NCBI GenBank assembly: GCA_033763455.1
Contig: JANRKO010000092.1
Location: 92,477-156,476 of the forward strand
Length of the DNA: 64,000 nt
Direction: 5' to 3'
Source: Polyangiaceae bacterium
GTDB taxonomy: Bacteria > Myxococcota_A > Polyangia > Polyangiales > Polyangiaceae
Shown: positions 2,691 through 19,708 of the stretch, piece after piece
Layout: every line of letters begins with the position of its first letter
How positions within the stretch are numbered: position 1 is the first letter of the stretch
Notes under the pieces: model-generated
Told to the model about the DNA's origin: nothing
Databases searched by the model: none
Seen by the model: the letters and a program-made list of their open reading frames with translations, nothing else
Made by a program: the position numbers and the translations under genes

Positions 2691-2741
2691 AGATGGGATG
2701 CCTTGGGAGAGGGGAACACGGAGGTTAACTTGCAGGCGCTT

Positions 2742-4910
2742 TTAGTGCAGGTGCACAGCGAATTCGGCGCGACCGATTCGCAACAGTGATTCATCCACCA
2801 CGGGCAGCCACGCTCCGAGCGGTGCCTTGGTGCCGTTCACGTGTGTGCCGAGCTCAGCTTGCTCAGTGCGTACGAAAAGCCGCCCATCCTCCAGCTTAAG
2901 TGAGGCGTGGACGGGTGCGGCTTGGGTGGCATCAAGCACGATGCTGCAGTGCTGAAGATCGCTCCCAGCTCTGATTTCTGCGCCCGGCACGATGGTGAAC
3001 ACGCCCGGGGCTCCCTCTAGAATCGCACGCCTTCCCTGCGCGAGATCTTCGGCGGTGAGTGCCCGGGGCGGCTCTTGGCGTGCCTCCGCCCTATAGCCAG
3101 GCCCAGGCCCAGGCGGCGGCTGTTGCCCGCCGTAGCCCGGAGGAGGGCCGTAACCGCCTCCGGGAGGAGGGCCATAACCGCCGGGCCCTGTTGGACCGGA
3201 AGGACGCCGCTTCTTACCACTTTGCGCGATCACAATAATCAGTAAAAGCACTACGACAACGCCAAAGGCTCCTGCAAGTACGTAGAGGAGCGGAAACGGC
3301 GGCTCCGTCCCCGGCAGTTCCACAATCGTATCGGCAGTGACACCACTGGCTCGGTGAGCTTTGTTGTCGTAAACCACCAAACGCACAATGGCTTGGGATC
3401 CCGAGCCTTGCAGCAGCTTGTCTTTATCGGGTGCTTGAAATTCGACCACCGTGTCATTGGCGCTTACCGTGGTCCCCTTCATTCCCATAGCGATGAGCTG
3501 CTGTTGCGCATTTTTGGCAGCTGCGATGTCTTTGCCGGTCAGCTCCTTGGGTACGGCTTGCCCTGCCGGGAGGAAATAGACCTCTGCTCGGGATGCGTCG
3601 CCACCCCAACAAAAATCACCGTAAACTTTGAAGTTCCCGCCCGCGTAAACGCCGTTTTGGCGCTTGGCTGCATCCTTGGTGAGCTGGATGTTCACGTCGA
3701 GCGGCCAAGCCGTTGGGTCGACCCCGATTGGAACATCTTTAAATGTGTTGTCTCCACCGATCTGGGGCTTCACGTCGCTGAACACCAAGTTGAAAGTTTG
3801 GGTCACCGTGGGCGCCAAACAAGAAACTTTCCACTTGACGATGTGCATCTTGGCAAAGCGTGAGCGCACAGCGTTCACCACAGCGGAAGCGCGCGCGCCT
3901 TGGCCCTCCTGCACCACGGTGAAGAATCCGCCGATCTGGGGGTTGGCCAGGTTCTGCATGAACTCGAGCGAGTTCTGTCGAAATTCGTCGATGCTGCGGT
4001 AGGGAAAGAGGACGCTGATAACCGGCACCGGCACCTTGGGGGCAGCAGTATTGTTTTCGGGGAAGCGCCCTTGGGTCATGTATTGTTGAAGCTGCATCGC
4101 TCCGGGGCCGCTTGTTGCTGCATCCGCACCGCCGTAGCCATTCGAGAGCACCACCATCGCTTGGTGGAGCGGCACCGTGACAGTCTCGCCCACGTTTCCG
4201 AGCGCCCCGAAACCATCAGTGGCGGCCTGTTTGATGATGCTAAGCAAGCTGCGGGTGCGGCCTTGGCTCGGATAGGTACCGGTTACGCTATCGACGAACC
4301 CGGTTACTTTGTCTTTGGCGGCGGCGCTGTTCCACTGCGAGTCCTGCACGACTTGGCGGTCGTTGAAGAACATCACGTTAACAATGTCGTTGGGCCCCAT
4401 GCTGGCAACGAAGCGGCGGGCAACCTGCCGCGCATCGTCGAGGCTCTTGCCCATGCGCTTGTCTGCGTCGATGAGGATGAGCCAAGCGGTTCCTACTCCG
4501 GGCTCGGCCTGGCTATCGCCCCACTTGGTGTGGCTCACATGCGTTGCGGGGCGTTCGGACCCCTCTACGAGCACGGTAAACAGGGCCTGTTTTTCTGGAA
4601 ACGGAAATGGTGTGTAGAGCGCGTACGGCTTTTCTAGTGCATCGCTCATGCACGAAAACTGAGCGCTACCGGTCAACGTCGCGCACGGCGCGATCACTGA
4701 ACTTACGCGGGTGCTCTGGACGATCTCCACCAAAGTGGTGAGCACTGGATTGCCTCCCCCTTGCGAAGCCCTGGGATCGACCCGAAGAATGTGTGCCTCG
4801 GGGGCAGCGTGGGCTCCAAATGGGAGGAGCCAGATGGCGCACAGGATAATGAGTGCCTGCCACGGCAGGGAGCGACGTGGAGCAAGAGCGGGGGAGCCTT
4901 TGGTAAACAT
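2742..4910 (-). CDS. Membrane-anchored vWA-like protein with GYGPPP linker and degenerate C-terminal FHA
   Basis: Signal peptide (..FGAHA|APE), vWA-like LILIDAD..VNVMFFND..MVVLSNG, TM helix, Gly/Pro/Tyr repeats, FHA-like tail. Start moved to ATG 4910 because ATG 5000 lies inside the rplS terminator. Confidence 0.75.
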   Translation of the reverse strand: MFTKGSPALAPRRSLPWQALIILCAIWLLPFGAHAAPEAHILRVDPRASQGGGNPVLTTLVEIVQSTRVSSVIAPCATLTGSAQFSCMSDALEKPYALYTPFPFPEKQALFTVLVEGSERPATHVSHTKWGDSQAEPGVGTAWLILIDADKRMGKSLDDARQVARRFVASMGPNDIVNVMFFNDRQVVQDSQWNSAAAKDKVTGFVDSVTGTYPSQGRTRSLLSIIKQAATDGFGALGNVGETVTVPLHQAMVVLSNGYGGADAATSGPGAMQLQQYMTQGRFPENNTAAPKVPVPVISVLFPYRSIDEFRQNSLEFMQNLANPQIGGFFTVVQEGQGARASAVVNAVRSRFAKMHIVKWKVSCLAPTVTQTFNLVFSDVKPQIGGDNTFKDVPIGVDPTAWPLDVNIQLTKDAAKRQNGVYAGGNFKVYGDFCWGGDASRAEVYFLPAGQAVPKELTGKDIAAAKNAQQQLIAMGMKGTTVSANDTVVEFQAPDKDKLLQGSGSQAIVRLVVYDNKAHRASGVTADTIVELPGTEPPFPLLYVLAGAFGVVVVLLLIIVIAQSGKKRRPSGPTGPGGYGPPPGGGYGPPPGYGGQQPPPGPGPGYRAEARQEPPRALTAEDLAQGRRAILEGAPGVFTIVPGAEIRAGSDLQHCSIVLDATQAAPVHASLKLEDGRLFVRTEQAELGTHVNGTKAPLGAWLPVVDESLLRIGRAEFAVHLH

Positions 4911-4980
4911 ACGGGCCAAGACTCTAGAGGATTTTGCGCGCACCCGTGAGTCAGGGAGGGCGCCCGGGAGACCTAGACGC

Positions 4981-5011
4981 AAAAAAGCCCGCAAAGACAT
5001 GCGGGCTTTTT
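4981..5011 (-). terminator. Intrinsic terminator downstream of rplS (A/T tracts on both sides)
   Basis: AAAAAAGCCCGCA-aagaca-TGCGGGCTTTTT. Confidence 0.85.
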
Positions 5012-5052
5012 CTGGTTTCCGCCGTTTGGGCGGCTGACCGAAGGCTACTTCT

Positions 5053-5412
5053 TCAACGATCTTTTTCGTCTCTTACGCGAGCAGCCTTACCTACGAGGTC
5101 ACGCAAATAGAATAGGCGGCCGCGACGAACGACGCCGCGAGAGAGCACCTCAATCTTATCGATGCGGGGTGAGTGGGAGGCGAAAGCACGCTCCACGCCA
5201 ACGCCAAAGCTCACTTTGCGGACCGTGAAGGTCGAACGGCTCCCGGCACGATGGCGCTTGAGCACCACGCCCTTGAAGACCTGAACGCGCAACTTGTCGC
5301 CTTCGACGATTTTGTAGTGAACCGCTACGGTGTCCCCGACCTTAAAATCAGGCAAATCCGTGCGGATGAATTGGGCCTCGATGGGCGCGATGAGTGAGGC
5401 TGTGAGGGGCAT
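5053..5412 (-). CDS. rplS: 50S ribosomal protein L19
   Basis: [51 protein letters not shown]; start ATG 5412. Confidence 0.97.
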
Positions 5413-5452
5413 GACTTTCAAAAAACTCCCTGGCCGAGTTAGAGGGCCCGGG

Positions 5453-5481
5453 TATCTAGGCGGTTGTTTCAGCGTCGTCAA
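5453..5481 (-). promoter_or_regulatory. Putative sigma70 promoter for rplS
   Basis: TTGACG-N17-TAGATA on the minus strand. Confidence 0.5.
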
Positions 5482-5524
5482 CCGAAACAGCCTTGTTTTT
5501 TGTTTGGCCGCAGCTCAAGTCGGC

Positions 5525-5553
5525 TTGACGTCGGAGGCACGGAGGGCTATCCC
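5525..5553 (+). promoter_or_regulatory. Putative sigma70 promoter for rplC
   Basis: TTGACG-N17-TATCCC (weak -10). Confidence 0.4.
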
Positions 5554-5589
5554 CCCGGCCCGTTTTCAGAATTGCAGGAATTTAAAGCC

Positions 5590-6246
5590 ATGAATCAGTT
5601 TCCGGGTGTCTTTGGTCGCAAAGTTGGCATGACACAGATTTTCACCGAGGACGGCACCGTCGTTCCCTGCACCGTGGTCGAGAGCAAGCCCGTCGTGGTG
5701 GGCAAGCGCACGAAGGAGAAAAACGGCTACGACGCCCTCCTGCTCGGTCTGGGCCAGCGCAAGCCGAAGCACGTTAACAAGCCTCTTGCCGGGTTCTATA
5801 AGGGCATGAGCCACGCGCCTGCGGCTATCCTCCGTGAGCTCCGTTGCGCGGCAGAGTTCGCGTCCAAGTACGAGGTCGGACAGGAAGTGAAGCTCGACGA
5901 AGTTTTCCAAGAAGGCCAGTCCGTGGACGTCCAGGGTGTTACGCGCGGTCGCGGCTTCACCGGCGTCATGCGCCGCCACAACTTCAAAGGCGCTAAGCGC
6001 AGCCACGGTGCTCACGAGTATCAGCGCCACGGCGGTGCCATCGGTACCAACATGACGCCAGGTCGCGTCATGGCCGGCAAGCGCATGCCGGGACAGTACG
6101 GCAATGAGCAGGTCACCGTGCACAATCAGCCCGTGGTCAAAGTCATGGCCGATCAAGGCCTCTTGTTGATCCGCGGCGCGATCCCGGGTGCCAAGAATGG
6201 CCTCGTTGTGGTGCGCGGCGCTGTTAAAGTTCGCAACATTAAGTAA
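5590..6246 (+). CDS. rplC: 50S ribosomal protein L3
   Basis: GRKVGMTQIF..GRGFTGVMRRHNF..SHGAHEYQRHGGAIG..PGRVMAGKRMPG; ATG 5590 with AGGA upstream. Confidence 0.97.
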   Translation: MNQFPGVFGRKVGMTQIFTEDGTVVPCTVVESKPVVVGKRTKEKNGYDALLLGLGQRKPKHVNKPLAGFYKGMSHAPAAILRELRCAAEFASKYEVGQEVKLDEVFQEGQSVDVQGVTRGRGFTGVMRRHNFKGAKRSHGAHEYQRHGGAIGTNMTPGRVMAGKRMPGQYGNEQVTVHNQPVVKVMADQGLLLIRGAIPGAKNGLVVVRGAVKVRNIK

Positions 6247-6337
6247 CAGGGATCCACGCCCGACAGATGCCGTTCGCACTTTGGCGATCGGCGCATTCCG
6301 CCAGGGCGAAACGGCTACCAGTGGCGCGATGCGCACA

Positions 6338-7753
6338 CTATGCCATGAGGAGTTCCCGTCCCCGGACTATGTGAACGCCGCCCAGGACGCGCGGCGCGCC
6401 TCTAGAAACCTCCGGGACTAACAGCGCTCGAACTACTGACTCCGCCTTGAAGCGCAAGGCGGGCGCGGGCAGCAGCTTACGTGCTGTCTCGTGAGCAAGC
6501 CGCTCAAGCTCGCGAACATCAAAGGGGCGCGCTGACCACTTCACCTCAGCGGTAAGGAGCCGTTTACCATCGTCCGACGCGCTAACGAGATCCCACTCGG
6601 GGGCGTTCCCTCGCCACCAGCGCGCGGGGGTGCGCCATGGTCCGAGCCGTCCGAGAGCTGAGCGGTGGTCGATATCAGTGACAAATGTTCGACACAATTC
6701 CTCCCAAGCCAAGGCAGCGAGAATGGGCCAGTGCGTGCGCAAGAGGGCAATTCGCTCGTTAGCCTTACTCGAAGCCAAGCGTCCGCGATTGGGAGCTACC
6801 ACTCGAAACCAGAGGCGCGCGAACGGATCATTGAGCTTGTACAGGCTGCGTTTGCTGAGGTGTTCCGGCTCGCCGTAAGGAACTTCGCGGGAAATCAGAC
6901 CTAGCTCCTGTAGGCGTTGGAGAGGCCGCGACAGTGAAGTAGCTTTCCATCCGATGCGACCTGCAATCTCCGAGGCCCGGTGCACCCCTTGCCCGACAGT
7001 ATCAAGGATCGGACGCAGCTCAACTGCTGAAGGGACTTCCTCCAGAAGCAGCCGATCGGGCTCCGTGTGCAGTGGCCCAAGCGGGTTCAAAACAAGGGCA
7101 TCAATCTGAGATTCCACGCCGTTGCCAGCTTCGACGGCGAGCTCCCAGTAGCGCGGCACGCCACCCCAGGCCGCATACAACTGGACCAGCTCGATGATCG
7201 AACGCTTGCCGAAGGCGCTGGGCAGGTACCGCGGCGACAAAGGCTTGACCTCGAATAGCGCTTCGGCCCGACCATAAAGTGGCGCAGATGCGGCCAGCAC
7301 CAAACCTTGCATCATGCGCTGGCTGGACCCAGCGAGTGCAAGCGTTAGCCGAGCGGCTTTGGCCTCGTGGTCGATGAAGCGCTGCAGCACACTCGCGATC
7401 TCCGGCGCTGCGAACGCCAGATAAGGGAGCTCGTCTATCACCAACGGGCCATGCCACTTTCGAGCTCGTGCATCGCGCGCAAGGCGCGAAAATAAACTCG
7501 CCCAATCCGGGTACTCAACGTCCGCGAACCCCGGCAACACCTGAGCAACAGTGCTGGCGAAGTAGCGTCGTTGCACCTCGGGCGCGGATTGATCGGCGAC
7601 GGTATAGAGCCCCCCGTTTCGCTCTGCCCATTCAAGAAGCAGGCGAGTCTTCCCGATTCGCCGCCGCCCATAGACAACAGCTAACCGCCCCCCGGTACCG
7701 GAAAGCAGGCGCACCAGTACTTCCATCTCCTCATTTCGGTTGATGAAGCGCAT
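6338..7753 (-). CDS. AAA-family (archaeal-type) ATPase with wHTH and C-terminal DUF234/PD-(D/E)xK-like domain
   Basis: MRFINRNEE, Walker A YGRRRIGKT, Walker B VIDELPYL, GGVPRY, YKLNDPFARLWF, C-terminal EWDLV..AEVKW. Confidence 0.85.
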   Translation of the reverse strand: MRFINRNEEMEVLVRLLSGTGGRLAVVYGRRRIGKTRLLLEWAERNGGLYTVADQSAPEVQRRYFASTVAQVLPGFADVEYPDWASLFSRLARDARARKWHGPLVIDELPYLAFAAPEIASVLQRFIDHEAKAARLTLALAGSSQRMMQGLVLAASAPLYGRAEALFEVKPLSPRYLPSAFGKRSIIELVQLYAAWGGVPRYWELAVEAGNGVESQIDALVLNPLGPLHTEPDRLLLEEVPSAVELRPILDTVGQGVHRASEIAGRIGWKATSLSRPLQRLQELGLISREVPYGEPEHLSKRSLYKLNDPFARLWFRVVAPNRGRLASSKANERIALLRTHWPILAALAWEELCRTFVTDIDHRSALGRLGPWRTPARWWRGNAPEWDLVSASDDGKRLLTAEVKWSARPFDVRELERLAHETARKLLPAPALRFKAESVVRALLVPEVSRGAPRVLGGVHIVRGRELLMA

Positions 7754-7793
7754 TATGCTGGGAAACATAATGCAATACCGCATAATATGTCAA
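7751..7793 (-). promoter_or_regulatory. Promoter/operator of the AAA ATPase gene
   Basis: Perfect -35 TTGACA (7788-7793, minus) with N18-TATGTT; inverted repeat CATTATG-N8-CATAATG (7751-7772) plus third half-site CATAATA (7781-7787). Confidence 0.55.
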
Positions 7794-7937
7794 ATGGCGT
7801 GCGCGTCCGCGGCGGAAAACGCCCGTACCATGAAAATCCTCAGCCGAGATGAGCGCTTTGACAAGAAGAGCGGTGGGGCTCGCGAACGAACATGGCGCCC
7901 ATCGCAACAAGCTGAGCTTGAGCGTTGATCCCTTTGA

Positions 7938-8084
7938 TCAGGGGCAGCCGATGTCTACGTCTAAAGTGAGCACGGGTGCCCCTTGTAGGGCTGCCGCGAC
8001 ACCACCCACGACCATAAACTCCACACGGTGCTCGCACAGCACTCGGAGCATTTTTCCCCAATCGACTACCGCCATTGGTGCCAT
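7938..8084 (-). pseudogene. Truncated nucleotidyltransferase (Pol-beta superfamily, DUF6036-like)
   Basis: Manual translation MAPMAVVDWGKMLRVLCEHRVEFMVVGGVAAALQGAPVLTLDVDIGCP*; GG..DxD motif followed almost at once by a stop. Confidence 0.75.
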
Positions 8085-8102
8085 GCGCAGAAGCGGAATC
8101 CG

Positions 8103-8213
8103 CTACTCCACGGCGGGAATACGACGGACTGAAGCCAGCGAGTTCAGGAAATTTTCCACGGCCTTGAGGCGTTCGGTAGGCGTTAAACCAAGATATCCCG
8201 ATTCGTCGGTCAC
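8103..8213 (-). pseudogene. Short ORF or remnant resembling the small partner gene found upstream of such nucleotidyltransferases
   Basis: VTDESGYLGLTPTERLKAVENFLNSLASVRRIPAVE*; LTPxERL motif; GTG overlaps the GGDEF stop (GTGA). Confidence 0.5.
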
Positions 8214-8938
8214 AAAGGACGCTCTATGCGTGCGCCACAGTTGGGGCAGAATAGCTCGCCCTGATGAGGGCTCCCGAGCGGAACTTCCAAAGTGAACGAC
8301 GAATTGCACTCGCGACAGTCATCGCGAATGCTGCGGCGCTGCGCCTTCTCGACGTCAGGAGAGTAGCGGATAACGCAGTTTCGGCCTTGGATTTTGGCCG
8401 TTCCCACGGTTGCCTCGAGCATGCGCATTGCAACCCGATGTGTGAGAATCTCATCGCCCGTATCGTCAGAAGTCATCCACCCAATGCTGACAGTGCAGCT
8501 CATCGTGCCATGCTCGGTTGAAACCGCAATGCCTTCGATTTCTGCGCGCAAGCGCTGAAGCGCGTCGTGAATTGAGCCTTCGACGACATTGGGGCCTTTA
8601 GGCCCAAGCAGATAGAACTCATCTCCGTGTGCACGAATGGGCATGGTACTAGCGATGTAGTCCTCAAACGCTGCCAGCCGCTTCCCAATCTTCTGAAGTA
8701 GGCCGTCCGCTAGTTCGTACCCAAATTTGTCGTTGACGCGCTTGAAGTAATCGACCTCGATGAATGCAAACCAGAAAGGCTCACCGCGTTCCAGTGCGTT
8801 CCTCAGGCTTTCTGCGAGCGCCTGATCATTGCCGAGCCCGGTGAGCCGATCACGGAGCTGCTCCTCGCGGACAAGCGCTTCAATCTGCCGTTGCAGCTCC
8901 CCAAGCGCGGCTTCCAACTTCTGAGTCTGCTGTGTCAA
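8210..8938 (-). CDS. Variant GGDEF protein with N-terminal coiled coil and C-terminal Zn ribbon
   Basis: DRLTGLGN, EVDYFKRVNDKFGY..AD, RAHGDEF, TVSIG, AK..GRN; CRECNS..FCPNCG. Confidence 0.9.
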   Translation of the reverse strand: MTQQTQKLEAALGELQRQIEALVREEQLRDRLTGLGNDQALAESLRNALERGEPFWFAFIEVDYFKRVNDKFGYELADGLLQKIGKRLAAFEDYIASTMPIRAHGDEFYLLGPKGPNVVEGSIHDALQRLRAEIEGIAVSTEHGTMSCTVSIGWMTSDDTGDEILTHRVAMRMLEATVGTAKIQGRNCVIRYSPDVEKAQRRSIRDDCRECNSSFTLEVPLGSPHQGELFCPNCGARIERPL

Positions 8939-9243
8939 CTCAAGGCACCGGAAATCTCGAGCGCGAGTCGGCGGGGGTTTTCGTAAGGCTGCCCCTCCAC
9001 TGGGACATCAACACTCACCATCCGCCCGTCGGGAAGCTCGCTCGTGACGACCCAAACGGGTGCTCCGTGCCGCCTTCCCAATTCTGCAGAGACAAGGCGA
9101 AACCCACGTTCTCGGAGCTCATCTCTCAGCGCGTTGTCAAACGACCTGCGCGCCGGCTCTCTCGATGAGCCAGCAAGGGCCAGCAAGCCGAGGGCGGCAA
9201 GACCACCTGCCACCCACATTGCCGAGCTATCCTGCTTCGCCAC
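8935..9243 (-). CDS. Small hypothetical protein with one N-terminal TM helix
   Basis: 102 aa, hydrophobic WVAGGLAALGLLALAG, AGGA upstream of GTG, TTGA overlap with the GGDEF start. Confidence 0.75.
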   Translation of the reverse strand: MAKQDSSAMWVAGGLAALGLLALAGSSREPARRSFDNALRDELRERGFRLVSAELGRRHGAPVWVVTSELPDGRMVSVDVPVEGQPYENPRRLALEISGALS

Positions 9244-9342
9244 ACATCTATCCTAGGCTGTGGTGCACGAACCGGCAAGCACGAGCGGGGGAGACTCTGA
9301 CTTCGAGAAAAGGCGGATATCATTCGGTTTATTTATAGTTCA

Positions 9343-9371
9343 TTGAATATGTGCGCGATGATGTATACGGT
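9343..9371 (+). promoter_or_regulatory. Putative sigma70 promoter (possibly leaderless transcript) for the HTH-STAND gene
   Basis: TTGAAT-N17-TACGGT ending 7 nt before GTG 9379, in an AT-rich patch. Confidence 0.45.
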
Positions 9372-9378
9372 GGGTATA

Positions 9379-12300
9379 GTGAAAAATTCATTCGATCTGA
9401 AGTCATCTCGCACCCGCCTTTCATTAACCCAGGCGGCGCTCGCCGACCGTCTAGGGCGTGCAACAAACACGATCGCTCGCTGGGAGCGGGGGGAACTTGC
9501 GGTGCCGGAAGACGTTCGGCGCGTCGTCGAAGCGTTAATTTCAGGACCGGCTGCAAGGCTTCCCGTCCCCGACGTTGTCACGCTCGACACGTTTCATTCA
9601 GATATTGTTGCTGCTCTGCATGAGCACGTTGACCCCGCTGTGTTCGAGGAGTGCGCAGCTAACCTACTGAGAGAGCAATGGCCTAAACTTGTCCCCGTTC
9701 CGGGCGGAAGCGATGACGGGTTCGACGGAGCTGTCGCCGGGGATGAAGGCACGAGGCCATGGCCCTTAATTGTCACGACGGATCGAAAGCCGGAGCGCAA
9801 TCTGAGCCGTAGCCTCAAGCAGGCGATTACCAAGGGGCACAACCCTAAGGTCGCAATTTTTGCAACATCGCGAGCGCTGACGCCTGGCCAGCGGCGCAAA
9901 CTTAACGACGCTGCTACGGCGTGTGGGGTAGTGCTTCAGCAGATCTATGACCGTTCCTGGTTCGCGGCCGCTCTGTACCGACATCCAGAGTGGTGCAATA
10001 AGCTGCTCGGCCTTACAGGAACCCCAGATCCTCTGTCTAGATTGCCGCTCTTGCTTAGGCTGGGGGGCACACATGAGATGCTCGGGCGATCATCCGAGCT
10101 CGCTAAAGCGCGCGAAACCGAGTCCGACGTGATCCTCTTAGGCGGTCCGGGGTCAGGGAAGACCATGCTGCTCCTACGGCTTGCTGATGACGGCTACTTT
10201 TTGTCGGACGGTGACCGAAATGCGGTGACGAATTCGATTCGTCGCCACTCGCCGAGGGTCGTGATTGTGGACGACGCGCACGATAACTTCACGCAGTTCG
10301 GTTTGTTGGTGAAGCTACGCAGGCAGCTAGGTGCTAAGTTTCGGATTGTCGTAAGCGCGTGGCCGCCCTACCTCGAAGATCTCCGTGAACATCTACCTAA
10401 TGCCGAGGTTGTGAGTCTAGGCGAGCTCGACGCTGACGTAGTCGCAGATATCGTTCGTTCCATAGTGCCGAATCTTCCAAACCAAGCCATCAAAGTAATC
10501 GTGCGGCAAGCTGATGGTCGCCCTGGCCTCGCAGCTACTCTGGCACATATGTGCATTGATGGACGCTACCGAGATGTAATGACTGGCGATGCTGTTTATG
10601 AGCGCTTGGGCAGCTACGTGGCGAAGGACCGAGAGTTGTTGGGTTGCTTTGCGGTGGCAGGTGACGCTGGCCTCCAGCTGGAGGATGCCGCAACGTTCCT
10701 TGGCCGACCGAAGGATGACGTGCAACGGGCGTTGACGCGCCTAGCTGCTGGTGGCGTCATTCGCGTCAGCGGCAGCAGACACTTTTCAGTCTGGCCGGAG
10801 CAATTGCGGTACGTCCTCGTTCGGGAAGTCTTTTTTCACGAGCGCAATGGGCTCGACTATGAACAGTTGGTTGCAAAGGTTTTCAATCGAAGTGCATGGC
10901 TTCGTGTGCTCATTGGGGCAACCCGTTCAGGAGCGCAGGTGCCGCGTCTCCAGGATAGGTTGGAGGAAGTGAACCAAGTGCAGCTCTGGTGCGAATACGC
11001 TTCCCTAGATCCGCAAGCCGCGAGCTACGTTCTCGACAAGCATCCAGAAATGCTCGTGGAAGCGGCGCCAGAGCTCTTGTGGCACGTGCCGGATCGCGCA
11101 CTTTCGAAGCTGCTCGACGCGGCCGCTCGGGGAGGGGCGCCTAGTGGTCGTGACGCTCCTGCGCTGACGGCGTTGCGAACGTGGCTGAGAGATTCCTCAA
11201 TGGACGAGAGAGTTGTCATTGCGAGGAGTCAGGAGGCCGCAAAGCAGGTTCTGAAGTGGATCAAGCGAAATGAGAACCATGCCGGAGCAATCGTCTTCTG
11301 TATCGCGATGAGTCCGATTTTGCAGGTGACAGAGAGTGATCCGGGCCGAGGTATGACGTTGACCTATCGCCGTGGTGCTGTGGGTGATTGGGGTATTGGG
11401 CAACTCACAGCGCTTTGGGATGCAGCACTACCGGACCTAATGCGCGCTCGTTCGCTGCCATGGGGTCACCTCTTGGACCTAGTAAATGAGTGGGCTCGCC
11501 CTGACGGCGGGATCCCCATAACTGCCGAGGCGAGGCGCATGATGCGCGACCTTGCCTGCAAAATGGTGCGTGACGTCGTCCCGCTCGCGAAGGCTCATCC
11601 AGGTGCGCAGCGAAGGCTGGCGGAAGTCGCTCGGACATTGGAGATCTCGGGGGAGGTGGACTTCCCCGACGTGGGGGCCGACGTGGGCGCGCTTTTTCCG
11701 CGCTTGGACAGGCACTCGGTCGACGACTTAGAGGCCGTCATGAAGAGTCATGTAAAGAGGGTTCGGGAATGGGCGCGGGTCCGCATCGATGTAAAAGACG
11801 TTGGCGAGCTGGTCCGATCCGTGCTTTCGCTCCAACAGCAACTGAACGAAGCGAAAGCTCGATCCGACAACTACGTGTGGGCGGCCTTCGACGAGTTTGC
11901 CCGGGGTACGTCAACGCCTACGGAGTGGGTCGATGCTTTAGTTGCAGAGCGTGCGGACCCCGCTCTGGTATGGCCCTTCGTACGACGGATCATAGACGAG
12001 GGCAGCGAGCTTGCGACGCTATTGGGGCTTCTGAAGGAGGACCGCTATACGGGATTACTTGCCGAAGGCGCCGTCATGTCAAAGAGTGCCCACGCCGAGG
12101 TCGTCGAATGGGTTGATTGCAAGGCCGCTGACTACGTTGAACAAATCTCCTGTCAAATCCGGGTGGGCAATGTTGGCGATGATCGAGTGCTCGCATTTCT
12201 CCATCACCGCGACCCACGCGTTCGCGCTGCAATTGCGGTGGCATATTATGTCCGGGAGAAGAATCCTTCCGACGAGCTCGGGAGTGCTTGGCGCAATGCG

Positions 12301-12936
12301 ATAATCGACACGGCTCGGGTCCCCGAACTACCGAGTCAGTACGAGTACTGGTTAAAACAGATTCTGACGCAGAACGTTGAGCTCGGTTCAGAATGGCTAA
12401 AGGCTCTCCTTGAGATCGAGAACGATGATCTTTCCTTTCACGATATCGGTCTCGAAGTCGCTGACAGGCTCGCGTTCGCGGCAAAGGCGGATATTCTTCA
12501 CTCGGCAAAGTTTGGCGTGCATCAGGCTGAGTTTCTCACGCATCTGGTGGGCGGAGATCCGAAGCTCTATGAAATGCTCCTGGAGCGTCGAGATCTCGCG
12601 GAGTATCACCTTGAGCCGCTCGCTTGCCGCTCGCGACTCGTGGACTCATTCTCCGGACCGATGAACCCGCGGAGGGGGTGGGCGGAGTTGTCAGCAATGG
12701 CGTTGGAACGAGGCTTCTCCGAGGATGAAGTGTTTAGAGCGATCCTGCCACGGTCGTGGGGCTTCACGGGCAGCGAAGTCCCTCTATGGCAGGGCTGGCG
12801 CGATGATTTTGAAAAATTTGAATCCCATTCCGAGCCAGCGGTGCGCCGAGTCGCCTCCCGTGGGAAGAGCGAGATGGATCGACGTCTTGCCGCAGCTCGG
12901 GAGCGTGAACGGATGGACGCCGTCCGCGGGGTCTGA
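9379..12936 (+). CDS. XRE-HTH + Mrr/REase-like fold + STAND-type P-loop ATPase with long helical C-terminus (Avs/NLR-like defence candidate)
   Basis: LTQAALADRLGRATNTIARWERGE (HTH); FEECAANLL..GGSDDGFDG (REase-like); GGPGSGKT; VVIVDDAH; GRPGLA (GxP). Confidence 0.8.
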   Translation: MKNSFDLKSSRTRLSLTQAALADRLGRATNTIARWERGELAVPEDVRRVVEALISGPAARLPVPDVVTLDTFHSDIVAALHEHVDPAVFEECAANLLREQWPKLVPVPGGSDDGFDGAVAGDEGTRPWPLIVTTDRKPERNLSRSLKQAITKGHNPKVAIFATSRALTPGQRRKLNDAATACGVVLQQIYDRSWFAAALYRHPEWCNKLLGLTGTPDPLSRLPLLLRLGGTHEMLGRSSELAKARETESDVILLGGPGSGKTMLLLRLADDGYFLSDGDRNAVTNSIRRHSPRVVIVDDAHDNFTQFGLLVKLRRQLGAKFRIVVSAWPPYLEDLREHLPNAEVVSLGELDADVVADIVRSIVPNLPNQAIKVIVRQADGRPGLAATLAHMCIDGRYRDVMTGDAVYERLGSYVAKDRELLGCFAVAGDAGLQLEDAATFLGRPKDDVQRALTRLAAGGVIRVSGSRHFSVWPEQLRYVLVREVFFHERNGLDYEQLVAKVFNRSAWLRVLIGATRSGAQVPRLQDRLEEVNQVQLWCEYASLDPQAASYVLDKHPEMLVEAAPELLWHVPDRALSKLLDAAARGGAPSGRDAPALTALRTWLRDSSMDERVVIARSQEAAKQVLKWIKRNENHAGAIVFCIAMSPILQVTESDPGRGMTLTYRRGAVGDWGIGQLTALWDAALPDLMRARSLPWGHLLDLVNEWARPDGGIPITAEARRMMRDLACKMVRDVVPLAKAHPGAQRRLAEVARTLEISGEVDFPDVGADVGALFPRLDRHSVDDLEAVMKSHVKRVREWARVRIDVKDVGELVRSVLSLQQQLNEAKARSDNYVWAAFDEFARGTSTPTEWVDALVAERADPALVWPFVRRIIDEGSELATLLGLLKEDRYTGLLAEGAVMSKSAHAEVVEWVDCKAADYVEQISCQIRVGNVGDDRVLAFLHHRDPRVRAAIAVAYYVREKNPSDELGSAWRNAIIDTARVPELPSQYEYWLKQILTQNVELGSEWLKALLEIENDDLSFHDIGLEVADRLAFAAKADILHSAKFGVHQAEFLTHLVGGDPKLYEMLLERRDLAEYHLEPLACRSRLVDSFSGPMNPRRGWAELSAMALERGFSEDEVFRAILPRSWGFTGSEVPLWQGWRDDFEKFESHSEPAVRRVASRGKSEMDRRLAAARERERMDAVRGV

Positions 12937-13144
12937 GGGAACGCGGCCGCTCAAGAGAAGGCGCCGCCAACTGCCACTTAATCCCCCAGGGATCGCGTCC
13001 CAAAGGAGGCCCGTTTTGGAAGGCGCAAAAAACCCTGAAGCCGTTGATTCGCCTCGGACCCTCCACAGGCACAGAGCTAGAAAAGCACCCCGTGTCCGTA
13101 ATCCTCCTAGCTTTTCCGTGCCGCCTCCGGCAAGGAACCCCATC

Positions 13145-14755
13145 GTGGCAGAGTTGCTGAACACAGGGTGGCCTGAACGTCGCGTGCTCAGCGACGAAAA
13201 CGGCTTGCTAGTGGTGGATAAGCCCGCCGGAATTCCCGTGCATGGCGGCGACGAAGGCTTGAAAGACGACGTGGTTTCGCGCTTGGCGGGGTGGTTCCGC
13301 GCGCACGGTGAATCAGAATATTTGGGCGTGCATCAGCGGCTTGATAAAGAGACCTCGGGGGTCCTCGTTTTTACGCGCAGCGAGCACAGAAATCGCGATG
13401 TGGCCGAGGCGTTCGAGTCTCATACGGTGCAGAAGAAGTACGTCGCGCTCGCGTCGTTGGCCGGCGTGAAAGCTGGGCAACTCAAGCGTTTGGAGGGCAC
13501 CTGGGAGGATAGATTGAGCAAACCGGAGAAGGGGCGAGTGAGCGTGGCGCGAACGGGAGGGCTTGAAGCCGTTACCCGGTGCCGAGTGCTCGAACAGTGT
13601 GGCCAGCGCGTCCTCATGGAGCTCTCTCCCGTCACCGGCCGCACCCATCAGTTGCGTGTGCAAGCGAGCGCACGAGGCATTCCCATTGTGGGGGATAGCA
13701 TTTACGGAGGGGAGCCCGCCTTGCGTTTGATGCTGCACGCTCACGAGCTCAAGCTGCCGAAGCAAAAGGCTTGGGTGGCGCCTATTCCGGGGGTGTTCCG
13801 CGATTGGTTGTACCAGCGGCCTTTTGATTTTGAAACCGAGGAGCTGAAGGGGCGCCTTCTGGATTCGTTTTTTCAGCGCGAGCCGCTTTCCGCCGAGAGC
13901 AACACGTATCGGCTAGTGAATGATCTGGGCGATCAATTGCCAGGCGTATGTATCGATAAATTTGGGGATTCCGCCGTGGTTTCCCTGTTTGATGAGCGCG
14001 CCTCGGCAGCCGGTGAAAAGCTGAGTGGGCTCTTGTTGGACATGGGATTTTCGCGCGTGCGTGTGGAGCATCGGGAGCGCGCCGTCACCAAAGTTCTCTC
14101 TGCACCAGCAGTGTTCACGGTGCAGGAGCATGGCGCCAACTTTGAGGTGCGGTTTGACGACGACTCATCCGTTGGGCTGTTTCTCGATCAACGCGAAAAT
14201 CGCCAACGCCTGCGGGCATTGTCGAAGGGGCTCCGGGTGCTCAACTTGTTTTGCTACACGGGGTCCTTCAGCGTTGCGGCGGCGCTCGGTGGAGCGCGCC
14301 AAGTGGTGAGCGTCGATCTGTCGGGTAGGTACCTTGAATGGGCGAAGCGCAACTTCGAGCTCAATGGTCTTACGGTTGATAGGCACGAGTTCATTCAAGC
14401 GGATGCTACGGTGTGGCTTGAACAGGCAGCTCGGCAGAAGAGGGTCTTCGATTTCATCGTGCTGGATCCTCCGAGCTTCTCAAGTGTGGGCAAACGGAAG
14501 ACCTTCAGTGTTGCTCGGGATTACGCCGAGACGGCCTCCCAATGCCTCCGCCTATTGGCCCCAGGAGGCCAGCTTTTGGCCGTCACTAATCACCGAAAAA
14601 CACCGCTACCTAAGCTCAGATCCGAGCTTCGAAAGGCCGCGGCGAGCGCGGGGCGCACCGTGCTTCAGCTTAAGGATATCCGCTCGGGTCGCGATTGCCC
14701 CGACTTGCTGAACGAGCCTCATCCGAGCAAAAGTGTGCTCGTGCGCGTAAAGTGA
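13145..14755 (+). CDS. Fusion of RluA-family pseudouridine synthase and RlmI/RlmK-like SAM methyltransferase
   Basis: VVDKPAG, HQRLDKETSG, TGRTHQLRV, LMLHA; then GLFLDQRENR, VLNLFCYTGSFS, IVLDPPSF; start GTG 13145. Confidence 0.9.
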   Translation: MAELLNTGWPERRVLSDENGLLVVDKPAGIPVHGGDEGLKDDVVSRLAGWFRAHGESEYLGVHQRLDKETSGVLVFTRSEHRNRDVAEAFESHTVQKKYVALASLAGVKAGQLKRLEGTWEDRLSKPEKGRVSVARTGGLEAVTRCRVLEQCGQRVLMELSPVTGRTHQLRVQASARGIPIVGDSIYGGEPALRLMLHAHELKLPKQKAWVAPIPGVFRDWLYQRPFDFETEELKGRLLDSFFQREPLSAESNTYRLVNDLGDQLPGVCIDKFGDSAVVSLFDERASAAGEKLSGLLLDMGFSRVRVEHRERAVTKVLSAPAVFTVQEHGANFEVRFDDDSSVGLFLDQRENRQRLRALSKGLRVLNLFCYTGSFSVAAALGGARQVVSVDLSGRYLEWAKRNFELNGLTVDRHEFIQADATVWLEQAARQKRVFDFIVLDPPSFSSVGKRKTFSVARDYAETASQCLRLLAPGGQLLAVTNHRKTPLPKLRSELRKAAASAGRTVLQLKDIRSGRDCPDLLNEPHPSKSVLVRVK

Positions 14756-14782
14756 GCGTGAAGCCAGCTTGAAGCAAAAGCG

Positions 14783-15373
14783 ATGACCAAGAATCCCTAC
14801 AACCGCGTCGACCCCCGCACGCTCGCCGCGCGTGCTCAAGGTTACCCGGCGCGCAGCATCTTCAAGCTCGAAGAAATTGATCGTCGCGTGAAGCTCTTCA
14901 AGGGTGGCCAACGTGTGTTGGATCTCGGGGCAGCCCCCGGTTCGTGGACGCTGTATGCAGCGAAGAGGGTGGGGTCGAGCGGCCGCGTAGTTGCGATTGA
15001 TCTCAAGCCCATCGAGGAAGCCATGCCGCCGTGGGTTACCAGCAGCGTGGGCGATATTTTTCAGGTGCCGTCCGAGTCTGTGGCTGGCGCGGGGCCTTAC
15101 GATGTTGTGATGAGCGATATGGCGCCCAACACGAGTGGCTCCAAAGTTCACGATCAAACGGTGAGCTTTGAACTCGTGATGCGGGCTCTTGAATTCGCTG
15201 CTCACGTGGGTAAGTCCGGCTCGCACTTTGTAGCGAAGCTCTTCATGAGCAATCAGTTCACCGAGGCTAAGTCCGCGATACAGAAGCAGTATTCGGACAT
15301 GACCACGATTCGCCCTCAGGGAACCAGGAAGCCTAGCTCGGAAGTATTCTTGGTGGGGTTAAGGAAGCGGTAG
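14783..15373 (+). CDS. rlmE: 23S rRNA Um2552 methyltransferase
   Basis: YPARSIFKLEEI, VLDLGAAPGSW, VMSDMAP, FVAKLF, SSEVF. Confidence 0.93.
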   Translation: MTKNPYNRVDPRTLAARAQGYPARSIFKLEEIDRRVKLFKGGQRVLDLGAAPGSWTLYAAKRVGSSGRVVAIDLKPIEEAMPPWVTSSVGDIFQVPSESVAGAGPYDVVMSDMAPNTSGSKVHDQTVSFELVMRALEFAAHVGKSGSHFVAKLFMSNQFTEAKSAIQKQYSDMTTIRPQGTRKPSSEVFLVGLRKR

Positions 15374-15439
15374 GGCTTGCCACCACACGCCCTGGCAACT
15401 ATCCCAAAGCCTCCACCTACCAACGAGGATCACACCACT

Positions 15440-15862
15440 ATGGCTATCTCAAAAGCACATGCAACTTGGAACGGAACACTCAAAGAGGGCAACGGCACCA
15501 TGAAGGGGGATAACGGCTTTTTCGATGCCCCGTTCACGTTCGCTTCACGCTTCGAGGGCGCGAAGAAAGGTACCACGCCTGAGGAGCTGATCGGCGCGGC
15601 TCAAGCCGGTTGCTTTTCGATGTTTTTGGCAGCGCAGCTCACCAATGCCGGCAAGCCTCCAACGAGCATTCAAACCACCGCTACCGTACATCTGGGAGAT
15701 GGCCCCACCGTCACCAAGATCGAACTTGAAACGGTAGCCGTTGTTCCGGGTGCTGACCAGGCATTGTTTGATGAGAAGGTTGCGTTCTCAAAGGCGAATT
15801 GCCCGATCTCGAAGGCGCTCGCCGCAGTGCAAACGCTGACCGTCAACGCAAAGCTCGGTTGA
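15440..15862 (+). CDS. osmC: OsmC-family peroxiredoxin
   Basis: WNGTLKEGNG, FASRFEG, TPEELIGAAQAGCFSM, NCPISKAL. Confidence 0.92.
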   Translation: MAISKAHATWNGTLKEGNGTMKGDNGFFDAPFTFASRFEGAKKGTTPEELIGAAQAGCFSMFLAAQLTNAGKPPTSIQTTATVHLGDGPTVTKIELETVAVVPGADQALFDEKVAFSKANCPISKALAAVQTLTVNAKLG

Positions 15863-15916
15863 TATCCCCGGAGCGCGGCCCGCTCATTCTAAGATGAACG
15901 GTCTAGATTTGGGTGA

Positions 15917-15993
15917 GCCCCCTCTCGTCCGGGCTACGCCGCGGCCGATCTCCCCCTGATGCGTGCGCGCTTTGCGCGCGCCGCATGGGGGAG
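15917..15993. repeat. REP-like structured intergenic element, copy 1
   Basis: GCCCCCTCTC..CTCCCCC-long hairpin-GGGGGAG; same layout as 20485-20557 in opposite orientation. Confidence 0.6.
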
Positions 15994-16041
15994 TTAACTT
16001 GAAACCCGGGTTTGCACGCCAAGGCGTAGCCGGGCTGGATT

Positions 16042-17049
16042 TTAAAGCAGCTCGGCGATTTGCACAGCGTTGAGCGCCGCACCTTTCAGCAGCTGATCGC
16101 CCGCGACGAGCAGCATGAAGGATTTCCCGCTCGGGTCGCTGGTGTCCAGACGCAGCCGGCCAACTAGGATATCGTCCTTGCCGCTCGCGTCTTTGGGCAT
16201 CGGGAAATAGTTCTTTTGGCGGTCGTCAACCACGCGTACGCCGGGTGCCTTTTCAAGCAGAGCTCTGAGCTCTGAGAGCACCACAGGGCGTTCGCACTGT
16301 ACGGTCAGCGCTTCCGTGTGCGCGCGCAATACGGGCACTCGTACGCAGGTGGCCGCGATGTGGATGTTCGGATCACCGAAAATCTTGTGAGTTTCGTTGA
16401 CCATCTTGAGCTCTTCCTCGTTGTAGCCGGATCCCTGATCGAGCGAGGAGTTATGGCTGAAGAGGTTGAAGGCGTACGGGTGCGGCAACACTTTGAGCTC
16501 GTAGCTGCGGCCTTCAAGGTGTGCGCGTGTGGATTCCTCAAGCTCCTCCATGGCAGCAGCGCCGGCTCCCGAGGCGGCCTGGTACGTGGAAGCCTGCAAG
16601 CGCTTGATGGGATTCACCTTGTGGATGGGCCAAAGCGGCGTGATGCCGATGATGGTGGAGCAGTTAGGGTTGGCGATGATCCCTTTGTGCCGCTTCACAG
16701 CTTCCGGATTGATCTCCGGAACCACGAGCGGTACCTCCGGGTCCATCCGAAAAGCCGATGAATTATCGACCACGATGGCGCCCGCTTGAACGGCCGCTTT
16801 GGCGAACTTCTTGGAAATGCTGCCGCCAGCGGCGAAGAGAGCAATGTCCACGCCGGCAAAGCTATCAAGCGTGAGCTCTTCCACGGTTACATCTTGACCG
16901 AACGCTTTGACCACCTTGCCCTTGGAGCGAGCAGAAGCTAGCAACACCAGCTTCTTAACTGGAAACTTGCGGCGCTCTAGGCACCCAATAAGCTCGACTC
17001 CAACGGCGCCGGTGGCGCCCACAATTGCGACTGTTTTCGGCTGGTTCAT
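16042..17049 (-). CDS. asd: Aspartate-semialdehyde dehydrogenase
   Basis: VGATGAVG, VDNSSAFR, IANPNCST, CVRVPVLRAH, LLKGAALNAVQIAE. Confidence 0.97.
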   Translation of the reverse strand: MNQPKTVAIVGATGAVGVELIGCLERRKFPVKKLVLLASARSKGKVVKAFGQDVTVEELTLDSFAGVDIALFAAGGSISKKFAKAAVQAGAIVVDNSSAFRMDPEVPLVVPEINPEAVKRHKGIIANPNCSTIIGITPLWPIHKVNPIKRLQASTYQAASGAGAAAMEELEESTRAHLEGRSYELKVLPHPYAFNLFSHNSSLDQGSGYNEEELKMVNETHKIFGDPNIHIAATCVRVPVLRAHTEALTVQCERPVVLSELRALLEKAPGVRVVDDRQKNYFPMPKDASGKDDILVGRLRLDTSDPSGKSFMLLVAGDQLLKGAALNAVQIAELL

Positions 17050-17414
17050 GAGGGGCGGGACCCTAGCCGAACGTTCGCGCCATTTCCACGGGGTCCCCGA
17101 GCTCGGGCCTCGTTAAGTTCGGGTCAGTGTTTTGGCGGCAATGCTGCAACTTGCTCAAGCCGGACTCGCAGCAGTTCCGTGTCAACGAGGATACTTGTCA
17201 TGCTAAGTACCACTCGCTCCAAGAAACAGGGCGCAGCTTTGGCCCATGGGATCCGTGCTTCCAGGTCCGAGGCCGCTAAAAGTCTCGGCGTGTCGGGTCC
17301 CGCCCATGGCGGCCGCTTCGGGCGACATCGGGGCGGGGCAAGCTGCTACGAGCGCATTCTACGGCCGCGCGCGTTTCCTAAATTGCAGCTTGGAACCGAC
17401 CGAGGGGCGCGAGC

Positions 17415-18221: not shown

Positions 18222-18637
18222 GCCTAATTCTGACACATCGGTTTTGTGTCGGCACGCAACGCGGCGATCTGGAGGGTGTTGGCGGTGTGTAAGTGCGTGA
18301 CGCAAGTGTCAGTGACAATGACGTCAGTGGCTGTGAGGTGGGCTTCATGCGAGGTGATGCAGTAGCAGGCTAACGTCACATCGTCGCAAATTGCTAGGCG
18401 CTTGCTATGGGCAGCCGGGTGAGTTGGAGCTAGAAGCTCATGGGAGGGGCTTGGTGTGTGAAAGGTATGTGTGCATTCGTGGGCTAACATCGAAGGTCGG
18501 CGTGGCTTCCTGATGACGCCCAATTCTGCTAAGCGAGCACTTTTAGGCCACTTGTCGCTGCTTCTTGGCCAAATACTGCGAGCATTAGTCGGGGTGGTGG
18601 CCAGATAGTGCTCGGGGCAGCTGGTATGGTTTGCTGC

Positions 18638-19624: not shown

Positions 19625-19708
19625 ACGTTGAACGTCAGCGGGCAATTCGGGCCCGCCCACCCCACCTTCCAGTTGCCTTCGAGCGGGGACCTCCGTAAGG
19701 AGAGCGCC

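Follow-up and report, generated by a model that had tools for sequence, protein, structure and literature searches.

Defence-like modules in an inserted block between rplC and the RluA-RlmI gene of a Polyangiaceae bacterium

Several described prokaryotic systems provide points of comparison for the genes considered here. Avs3 and Avs4 are each one large protein, whose N-terminal nuclease-fold effector precedes a STAND-type P-loop NTPase, winged helix included, and a long series of helical repeats at the C-terminus; these repeats are the sensor for phage terminase or portal. Sensor-less cyclases that restrain membrane effectors are described, in the excerpted text of the sources, for Panoptes and its DAC-based cousins (PMC11974786, PMC13640721, 10.64898/2026.08.10.743927), and excerpts of a 2026 preprint name GGDEF domains as a fold that may yet prove exapted for defence (PMC13640721). 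PDC-S27 is presented, likewise in excerpt, as an ATPase fused to a member of the PD-(D/E)xK fold, common in archaea and bacteria (PMC12988326). Defence islands at core-gene hotspots, in turn, combine variable cargo between core genes with decayed remnants beside intact systems, and have no recombinase of their own. Here we compare with these a block of genes at 6247-13144 of a 64,000-nucleotide stretch of DNA from a Polyangiaceae bacterium of the Myxococcota_A (assembly GCA_033763455.1, contig JANRKO010000092.1, positions 92,477 to 156,476); we call this whole stretch the window, and all positions below are in its numbering. We consider it quite probable that the block is a horizontally acquired island, not mobile by itself, which lies within the translation-gene block formed by rplS-rplC on one side and RluA-RlmI-RlmE on the other, and which was assembled in several events from independent modules, most of them resembling phage-defence genes. 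The kind of island is known; its members are new.

Extra DNA between rplC and the RluA-RlmI gene

The block is extra DNA of ~6.8 kb, a lineage-specific insertion between rplC and the gene for the RluA-RlmI fusion. Ribosomal protein L3 was used to search 40 relatives and the DNA downstream of rplC was taken from 30 of them, of which the 29 informative ones span the same genus, the same family and the same order. Such an alignment to related genomes had been proposed in an earlier note, written from the letters of the window alone, and it bears out the insertion: in 26 of the 29, all three congeners among them, RluA-RlmI or RlmE lies no more than 1.3 kb beyond rplC. In the first ten relatives (three of the same genus, seven of the same family) the fusion, or in one case RlmE, comes directly after rplC without exception (10/10). 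Among the second twenty, one contig stops just past rplC and is uninformative, and the tight junction is found in 16 of the 19 others. The spacer between rplC and RluA-RlmI in the congeners is only ~55-70 bp long, and no remnants of the island genes were seen in it. The three exceptions are G021, G015 and G018. The first, which belongs to another genus (L103, G021:C16, 1262-12039), has a different insert of 10.8 kb between rplC and RlmE, coding for proteins of 1540 and 353 amino acids (aa) without Pfam or PADLOC match, an amidohydrolase and other products; the other two have no RlmE within 12 kb of rplC and housekeeping-type genes there instead. The site has been opened at least once more elsewhere, in G021, and is not a busy hotspot in the sample examined. 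Of the 'defence hotspot' proposed in the earlier note, 'hotspot' is thus left with one other genome, whose cargo is different and has no PADLOC matches, and 'defence' stands as a reading of likenesses that we take up below.

The elements of the block and of its flanks are given here in order along the window (GC, fraction of guanine and cytosine; HTH, helix-turn-helix; ORF, open reading frame; REase, restriction endonuclease):

2742-5000, minus strand: FHA-domain protein in the upstream flank; it and rplS are syntenic with rplC in relatives
5053-5481, minus strand: rplS, divergent from rplC
5605-6246, plus strand: rplC (50S ribosomal protein L3), the left core flank; TIGR03625 at E 5.9e-73, above cut-off; sole copy in the genome
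6247-6337: left spacer, holding the left insert edge, between the rplC stop codon (6244-6246) and the ATPase stop codon at 6338
6338-7783, minus strand: ATPase_2 plus DUF234 protein of PDC-S27 type; Pfam PF01637 at E 1.2e-13 and PF03008 at E 1.3e-10
7731-7793, minus strand: AT-rich patch at the 5' end of the ATPase gene, containing a single sigma-70-like site; GC 0.383 over 7731-7790
7938-8084, minus strand: stump of a nucleotidyltransferase toxin of DUF2204/DUF6036 type, N-terminal 48 aa; 46% identity to a paralog on contig C39 of the same genome
~8103-8185, minus strand: possible C-terminal tail of an antitoxin (weak), ~27 codons, with motif-level likeness (ERL...RR)
8210-8938, minus strand: sensor-less GGDEF cyclase with an N-terminal helix, an HGDEF motif and a C-terminal four-Cys zinc ribbon; PF00990 at E 1.4e-18
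8935-9243, minus strand: single-pass membrane protein of 102 aa; a homologous ORF lies upstream of the cyclase in 20/20 loci
9244-9378: divergent intergenic region, the most AT-rich stretch of the island; GC 0.474 overall and 0.317 over 9328-9387
9379-12936, plus strand: Avs-like HTH-REase-STAND protein of 1185 aa, with Pfam HTH_31 and weak NACHT/nSTAND5 matches; XRE HTH at residues 7-53, restriction-endonuclease fold at ~62-215, STAND P-loop NTPase from ~240, helical repeats to the end
12937-13144: right spacer, holding the right insert edge, between the STAND stop codon (ending at 12936) and the GTG start of RluA-RlmI at 13145
13145-14755, plus strand: right core flank, the RluA-RlmI fusion, in which a pseudouridine synthase is joined to an rRNA methyltransferase; Pfam and NCBIfam matches

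All the elements named in the earlier note, four intact ORFs and two remnants between rplC and the RluA-RlmI/rlmE block, are present, the antitoxin remnant being the weak one. Two further ORFs, at 5566-6336 (minus strand) and 7849-8295 (plus strand), had no family match and lie opposite real genes or remnants. The fusion is followed by RlmE, OsmC and asd in that order. Alignment with its relatives begins only at residue ~145 of the long ORF, where their own start codon falls, so the gene starts with the GTG at 13145 and not at the position 12725 given previously. Across 5053-6246 and 13145-15373 the gene order is a conserved one: rplC stands away from any S10-type ribosomal operon, divergent from rplS and followed by RluA-RlmI and/or RlmE, an arrangement that is kept across the family and the order; several relatives have no RluA-RlmI fusion and show RlmE directly after rplC.

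Three intact modules and a broken toxin-antitoxin pair

The largest module is the Avs-like STAND protein. Its start is the GTG at 9379, which is the form in the protein collection and fits the family consensus, in place of the start at 9343 in the earlier note. Over 170 further full-length proteins of ~1190 aa belong to its family, with 30-35% identity to it, the nearest reaching 57%. The protein was not found in five close relatives of the bacterium, and among 300 other genomes of the phylum one has it, at 28% identity; judged from these sequence searches, it is thus foreign to the lineage. In 40 members of the family the Walker A (GGPGSGKT) and Walker B (VIVDD) motifs are invariant, and domain matches were obtained to XRE HTH in 37, AAA_16 in 33, nSTAND5 in 19 and Mrr_cat in 8 of them. 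An AlphaFold model built on 40 sequences (pLDDT 84.4) has helical repeats from about residue 520 to the end, and in Foldseek its best matches are Avs3 (8dgc, E 1.2e-9) and Avs4 (8dgf, E 3.6e-9), followed by a STAND-TPR protein, EfAvs5 and SAMD9. When the NTPase part was compared with VIA-align, EfAvs5 again came from among these to stand first (Z 11.7, root-mean-square deviation 8.9, 307 aligned), tied with Hsp104 and less than one Z unit above AAA+ ATPases of the ClpC/ClpA type, so this comparison points to a P-loop NTPase core and not specifically to STAND. A sequence search of solved structures with the protein returned no significant match.

The N-domain was also folded alone, on 24 sequences comprising that of the window and those of metagenomic loci (pLDDT 89.8). 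Its structural matches are EcoT38I (E 1.4e-4), MspJI, the N-terminus of Avs4 (TMq 0.54-0.57), FokI and AspBHI, and in these models the restriction-endonuclease fold of the domain is confirmed. Three residues of the nuclease fold, E90, D112 and D116, are invariant in the 40 members, and the best PADLOC matches of the whole protein are Aga_REase (2.3e-5, a weak REase match) and mad8 (1.1e-3). Genomic neighbourhoods add a further line of evidence. In L127 (1798-11100) a type I restriction-modification operon encloses a relative, which overlaps the end of hsdS with its start and is followed by hsdR. Six other loci adjoin DUF4238, HNH, integrase, Mrr, AAA_21 or RadC genes, which makes, with L127, 7 of the 16 STAND loci that have flanks.

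In many metagenomic loci (L115-L140, for example L118 near 584 and L126 near 4995) the relative of the STAND protein starts only with the nuclease-fold domain, a stop codon standing shortly before it, so the XRE HTH appears to be an optional add-on. The gene opens into the divergent intergenic region, whose AT-rich core is exceptional in a genome where only 0.2% of 60-nt windows have a GC of 0.40 or less. Within 9310-9400 two similar 11-mers, ATTCATTGAAT and ATTCATTCGAT, lie around the STAND start, and they might be operators for the protein's own HTH. We would expect the C-terminal helical repeats to bind a phage protein and the NTPase to oligomerise, upon which the N-terminal nuclease-fold domains would become active and abort the infection; the XRE HTH, where present as here, probably represses its own AT-rich promoter. 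The Avs-like family, with its ~1190 aa, its non-canonical nuclease fold and its optional HTH, is one worth testing.

The second module is the pair of the membrane protein and the cyclase. The latter, of 242 aa, scores 67.7 bits against PF00990 (cut-off 23.8) and has 83 full-length relatives at E <=4e-22, after which there is a gap to generic GGDEF proteins at 1.5e-8. Across 42 aligned cyclases little or no variation is seen in the RAHGDEF stretch, the metal-binding Asp (D63, invariant), the base-contacting Asn/Asp positions and the CxxC...CPNC ribbon, and the active-site motif reads HGDEF in 42/42 instead of GG(D/E)EF. The closest solved relatives are active diguanylate cyclases, and an engineered HGDEF form of Vibrio VCA0965 still made cyclic di-GMP (c-di-GMP), according to the excerpted account (PMC3974145). 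No RxxD I-site stands five residues before the motif in the window cyclase (...IASTMPIRAHGDEF) or in the family consensus, and the protein has no sensor domain, consisting only of the helix, the GGDEF domain and the zinc ribbon.

The partner shows a short acidic N-terminus, one transmembrane helix, a basic stretch and a domain of ~70 aa, an order from which that domain is probably cytoplasmic. Its conserved residues are F35, R57, P62 and W64 (alignment A4). The protein belongs to no Pfam, NCBIfam or PADLOC family, and an ESM Atlas search with it gave no usable match, all structural rows lying under or near a TM score of 0.5. Its profile gathers 283 clusters (at 50% identity) with E <=0.001, nearly all of 100-120 aa; no fusion to the cyclase was seen in the best 150 of these 283 matches or in the longer cyclase relatives inspected. 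Nine of 18 such proteins (alignment A4, that of the window at 8938-9243 and those of 17 loci) end in Ala-Ala, several in -LAA, which recalls ClpXP degradation tags; however, the ATGA shared with the cyclase start restricts what the final codon can be, and Ala is frequent in genomes as GC-rich as these.

The two genes are tied to each other more closely than to anything else around them. The membrane-protein gene overlaps the start of the GGDEF gene by 4 bases, the two being translationally coupled, and a scan of species-representative genomes yielded 20 true cyclase-family loci, almost all in Myxococcota, each of which (20/20) has a small membrane-protein ORF of the same type directly upstream. 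Apart from near-duplicate genomes there are no other recurrent neighbours, and no STAND or ATPase-DUF234 homologs occur in the 20 loci. A complex prediction for the two proteins gave a score of 0.57 against 0.00 for the best control, with three runs agreeing in 100% of contacts and a partner pLDDT of at least 84; this supports their contact weakly, as in calibration 116 of 157 solved complexes pass the mark, along with 2 of 215 mismatched pairs, and passing scores of 0.60 or less include only 18 of the 157 solved complexes together with both passing mismatches. Adjacency in every locus and the start-stop overlap set a high prior, and taken with the predicted complex they make it likely that the cyclase binds the membrane protein.

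PADLOC-type neighbours accompany the pair in 5 of 17 non-redundant loci, from which 104 ORFs were scanned. These are strong in L015 (HsdR, SoFic, HEC-01A), L022 (PDC-M41B, PDC-S06, GmrSD/HEC-06) and L030 (RmuC-type, Old), and weaker in L021 (an HEC-01A-like ATPase) and L012 (a PNP-type effector, with the cyclase between a serine recombinase and a DDE transposase). Next to L014 a Ser/Thr kinase also has a PADLOC match, which was left out of this count because kinases are common in these genomes. Likeness to the closest pair loci, in DNA and in translation, ends at ~8216 and ~9315, so the unit comprises just the two genes and ~70 nt upstream. In a maximum-likelihood tree of 19 family members, with two generic GGDEF paralogs of the same genome as outgroup and an unresolved backbone, the window cyclase is sister to L012 (support 98/97) and not to the congener copy, so it came from another Polyangiaceae lineage. 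The tree left out L031, whose match is split between two frames, and L020, whose match holds a stop. The latter (8001-8723) is the closest cyclase relative, at 64% identity; it carries its in-frame stop in a nanopore-derived bin, and may be a pseudogene or contain a read error. The congener copy is a 43%-identical pair that two congeners hold at one shared locus between bioB and KDPG aldolase, two of the cyclase-family loci being the same DNA as contigs of these congeners. By tblastn the genome of the window has no copy of the pair from that locus, its own bioB lying 488 bp from a contig end. In this genome bioB and the aldolase are on different contigs (G000 C20:103863-104822 and C43:73087-74519).

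The pair may be a self-contained nucleotide-signalling cassette, in which the cyclase would dock to its partner's cytoplasmic domain and make c-di-GMP or a related nucleotide. It would then be either a membrane-anchored local source of c-di-GMP or an immune signalling pair comparable to Panoptes. The more specific proposal, of an undescribed two-gene immune system on a true GGDEF enzyme, whose nucleotide restrains or activates the membrane protein so that infection leads to membrane damage, is tentative and, in our estimate, somewhat doubtful. In one variant the cyclase product would hold the membrane protein in check, as a Panoptes-like guard of the nucleotide pool, a type of system in which constitutive nucleotide synthesis keeps a toxic effector restrained; in another it would switch the membrane protein on, as in CBASS. 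A full-text search of the literature (HGDEF; GGDEF with anti-phage) showed no such pair in titles or abstract openings. Should the pair prove immune, the last major cyclase fold, in the form of a true GGDEF domain, would enter anti-phage nucleotide signalling, and as a widespread pair (the 283 clusters above) it is a family worth testing.

The third intact module, the ATPase-DUF234 protein, matches the PADLOC model of PDC-S27 (PDLC04984) at E 2.9e-35, with residues 12-424 on profile positions 3-420 of 474. Its translation contains a Walker A (GRRRIGKT), a Walker B (VIDE) and, in the DUF234 part, D...EVK, and it would act as an ATP-driven nuclease of the PDC-S27 candidate type. A sequence search of solved structures with it gave no significant match, and a literature search on DUF234 and defense returned matches only to DUF2345 and similar terms. 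One paralog (31%) occurs in the same genome, and congeners have relatives at other loci (51% and 47%); the 51%-identical homolog (G001:C100:7789-9189) holds one internal TGA. The AT-rich patch and the sigma-70-like site at the 5' end of the gene suggest Met11, at 7753, as its likely true start. In the sigma-70-like scan this site (TTGACA-18-TATGTT, 10/12, 7793-7764, minus strand) was the one that passed, against 2.1 expected by chance. The earlier note had described AT-rich patches with near-consensus sigma70 boxes; the patches are there (9328-9387 and 7731-7790), and the number of boxes is not above chance.

Between the ATPase and the cyclase lies what is left of a toxin-antitoxin pair. The stump is 46% identical (E 9e-6) to an intact ORF of 168 aa in the same genome (C39:312-818), which matches DUF2204 (PF09970; 24.6 bits, cut-off 20.3) and also DUF6036, and it carries the GG...DxD start of a Pol-beta-type nucleotidyltransferase. 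Beyond the stop codon no likeness to the paralog continues in any of the three frames, so the end of the stump is a breakpoint and not a point mutation. The possible antitoxin tail resembles, at the motif level only, the small ORF that precedes the C39 paralog, and had no tblastn or Pfam match. The expected 5' part of the antitoxin is occupied by the 3' end of the cyclase gene, and the expected rest of the nucleotidyltransferase by the 5' region of the ATPase gene. The toxin-antitoxin pair, presumably dead, has thus been cut on both sides, which supports at least two events, insertions or deletions, later than it. The truncation at both ends supports an island built by successive events, in line with the earlier note. 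That note had further proposed that the GGDEF operon landed on an older module: the older module is supported, and as to the landing, the data would equally suit deletions that trimmed the stump. In either case the doubly truncated stump illustrates well how a defence locus decays and is overwritten in nature.

The modules are found separately elsewhere, so the island is a mosaic of unlinked modules, and the three intact ones are best read as independent defence-type modules beside a dead toxin-antitoxin pair. A role in defence, like the mode of action of each module, is what we infer from the match to the unvalidated PDC-S27, the fold likeness to Avs and the neighbours of relatives.

Entry of the block and rival explanations

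The edges of the insert are not placeable to the base, the spacer DNA of congeners being too diverged to align. A repeat search over 6000-13400 gave only short imperfect families, and the sole edge repeat, the 8-mer CAGGGATC at 6247 and 12987, was rejected as an att site, being within chance (~0.3 such matches expected, on a rough estimate). No Rfam family was found in 5000-14000. As the island is without a recombinase of its own, we take homologous recombination in the core genes on either side to be its most likely route of entry.

Several observations weigh against an acquired, defence-type island. On the side of mobility, Pfam and NCBIfam scans found no integrase or recombinase domain, and there is no tRNA in window 1-20000 and no significant edge repeat, much as the earlier note had reported no integrase and no clear att repeat; searches of plasmid and phage collections by tblastn returned no match for the STAND protein or the cyclase. 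The island also does not stand out in composition. G+C at third codon positions (GC3) is 0.62-0.66 in its genes against 0.653 +/- 0.035 in the genome, the tetranucleotide distance of 3 kb windows across it runs from the 9th to the 86th genome percentile, and GC, GC3 and tetranucleotides are all within the genome range. This suggests a donor of similar composition or an old island. The earlier note had named family-wide synteny together with host-like composition as evidence that would tell against it; the composition is host-like and the gene set is not syntenic, and for that reason the former does not refute the island. Public Logan contigs, which are short and at 2-6x, include no listed piece that bridges 6247-6338 or 12936-13145. 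On the side of function, the (D/E)xK position of the STAND nuclease fold reads T133-T134 (40/40 and 38/40) and the canonical lysine is missing in 40/40 members, which makes catalysis by the predicted domain uncertain. None of the Avs models of PADLOC-DB 2.0 matches the protein at E <=0.01; accordingly it is filed as Avs-like, one that by analogy may work like an Avs, and is kept apart from the curated Avs types. Only housekeeping or unknown neighbours surround 9 of the 16 STAND loci with flanks and 12 of the 17 pair loci, and the shared pair locus of the two congeners looks more like vertical inheritance than defence turnover. PDC-S27 itself was found by 'guilt by embedding' and is, in the excerpted text, a candidate awaiting experimental validation (PMC12988326).

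Some of these points would suit an accessory block that is not immune at all, in which a membrane source of c-di-GMP, a STAND-type HTH regulator and an orphan ATPase have gathered in a permissive spacer. The cyclase is a bona fide GGDEF protein whose nearest solved relatives are diguanylate cyclases, the HGDEF variant of VCA0965 made c-di-GMP in the excerpted report (PMC3974145), 37 of 40 STAND family members have the XRE HTH, the neighbours of relatives are mostly housekeeping genes, and the pair is kept at one conserved locus in two congeners. Yet a regulator is not what the whole-length STAND fold, best matched by Avs3 and Avs4, or its restriction-endonuclease fold would lead one to expect, nor do the many relatives that have no HTH and begin with the nuclease domain, or the one embedded in a type I restriction-modification operon, fit it well; the ATPase is recognised, at E 2.9e-35, by the model of a defence candidate, and a cyclase without sensory domain or RxxD I-site is unusual for a housekeeping enzyme. 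We therefore hold a non-immune block to be unlikely. That the block is ancestral at the site and was deleted in relatives is very improbable. Host-like composition and the lack of a mobility gene or att site are what it would predict, but losses would be needed in nearly every lineage, given the tight junction in 26 of 29 relatives of several families; the modules' own relatives occupy unrelated contexts and taxa, and the window cyclase groups with L012 and not with the congeners' copy.

Even less credence is due to the idea that the junctions are chimeras made in assembly. On both sides the neighbouring genes are those expected from synteny, so that two false joins restoring synteny would be needed, with no repeat to cause them; composition is uniform, and public contigs of run X1 at >=99% identity cover 29 of 30 bins of the stretch, the uncovered bin being 9101-9377. 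What gives the idea its footing is that the genome is metagenome-assembled, in 92 contigs at 93.7% completeness, and that among the short public contigs, none of those listed bridging either junction, two (one of X1, one of X2) end exactly at 6247, the base that directly follows the rplC stop. That of X2 continues there with 34 letters unlike the window, and another public contig fits the window only from 13135, after 101 unlike letters. These contig ends hint at variants in the habitat that are without the island or differently loaded. We thus return to the acquired island as the best explanation of the block. Myxobacterial islands can sit inside a translation-gene block, without a mobility gene and compositionally invisible, where only synteny reveals them.

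Comparison with known systems

As an island the block is ordinary, with variable defence-type cargo between core genes. It has in common with the defence islands of core-gene hotspots this placing of the cargo, the decayed remnants beside intact systems and the want of its own recombinase, and differs from them in that the rplC site holds other cargo in 1 of 29 relatives (G021), without PADLOC matches. The ATPase-DUF234 protein corresponds to PDC-S27 by a full-length match to the hidden Markov model and the same two domains, with no structural difference from it. In the STAND protein we find the layout of Avs3 and Avs4 outlined at the beginning, with these two as its best whole-length Foldseek matches and with an N-domain that aligns to the N-terminus of Avs4. 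It differs from them in the extra N-terminal XRE HTH, in its shorter length (1185 aa), in a nuclease fold that is without the (D/E)xK lysine in 40/40 members, and in having no sequence-level match in the Protein Data Bank.

The cyclase shares with the diguanylate cyclases PleD, WspR and DgcZ the GGDEF fold, the metal-binding Asp and the conserved guanine-contacting Asn/Asp. In contrast to these, the first Gly of the motif is His in 42/42 members of its family, there is no RxxD I-site and no receiver, PAS, GAF or CZB sensor, and a C-terminal zinc ribbon and an obligate small membrane-protein partner are present. Set beside Panoptes and PanDA, its catalytic unit is a true GGDEF (HGDEF) domain with a zinc ribbon, and not mCpol or DAC. 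The partner, whose ~70 aa domain belongs to no known family and follows a single transmembrane helix, is not S-2TMbeta (a beta-barrel with two transmembrane helices, 2TM); it corresponds to none of the nucleotide-binding Panoptes effector types S-2TMbeta, CARF-2TM and SAVED-2TM. The membrane-protein gene, moreover, comes first in the window pair. What the pair has in common with Panoptes (OptS mCpol plus OptE) and with Panoptoo/PanDA is the architecture of a two-gene operon that couples a minimal sensor-less cyclase to a small membrane protein, together with the occurrence of its family, at times, in defence neighbourhoods.

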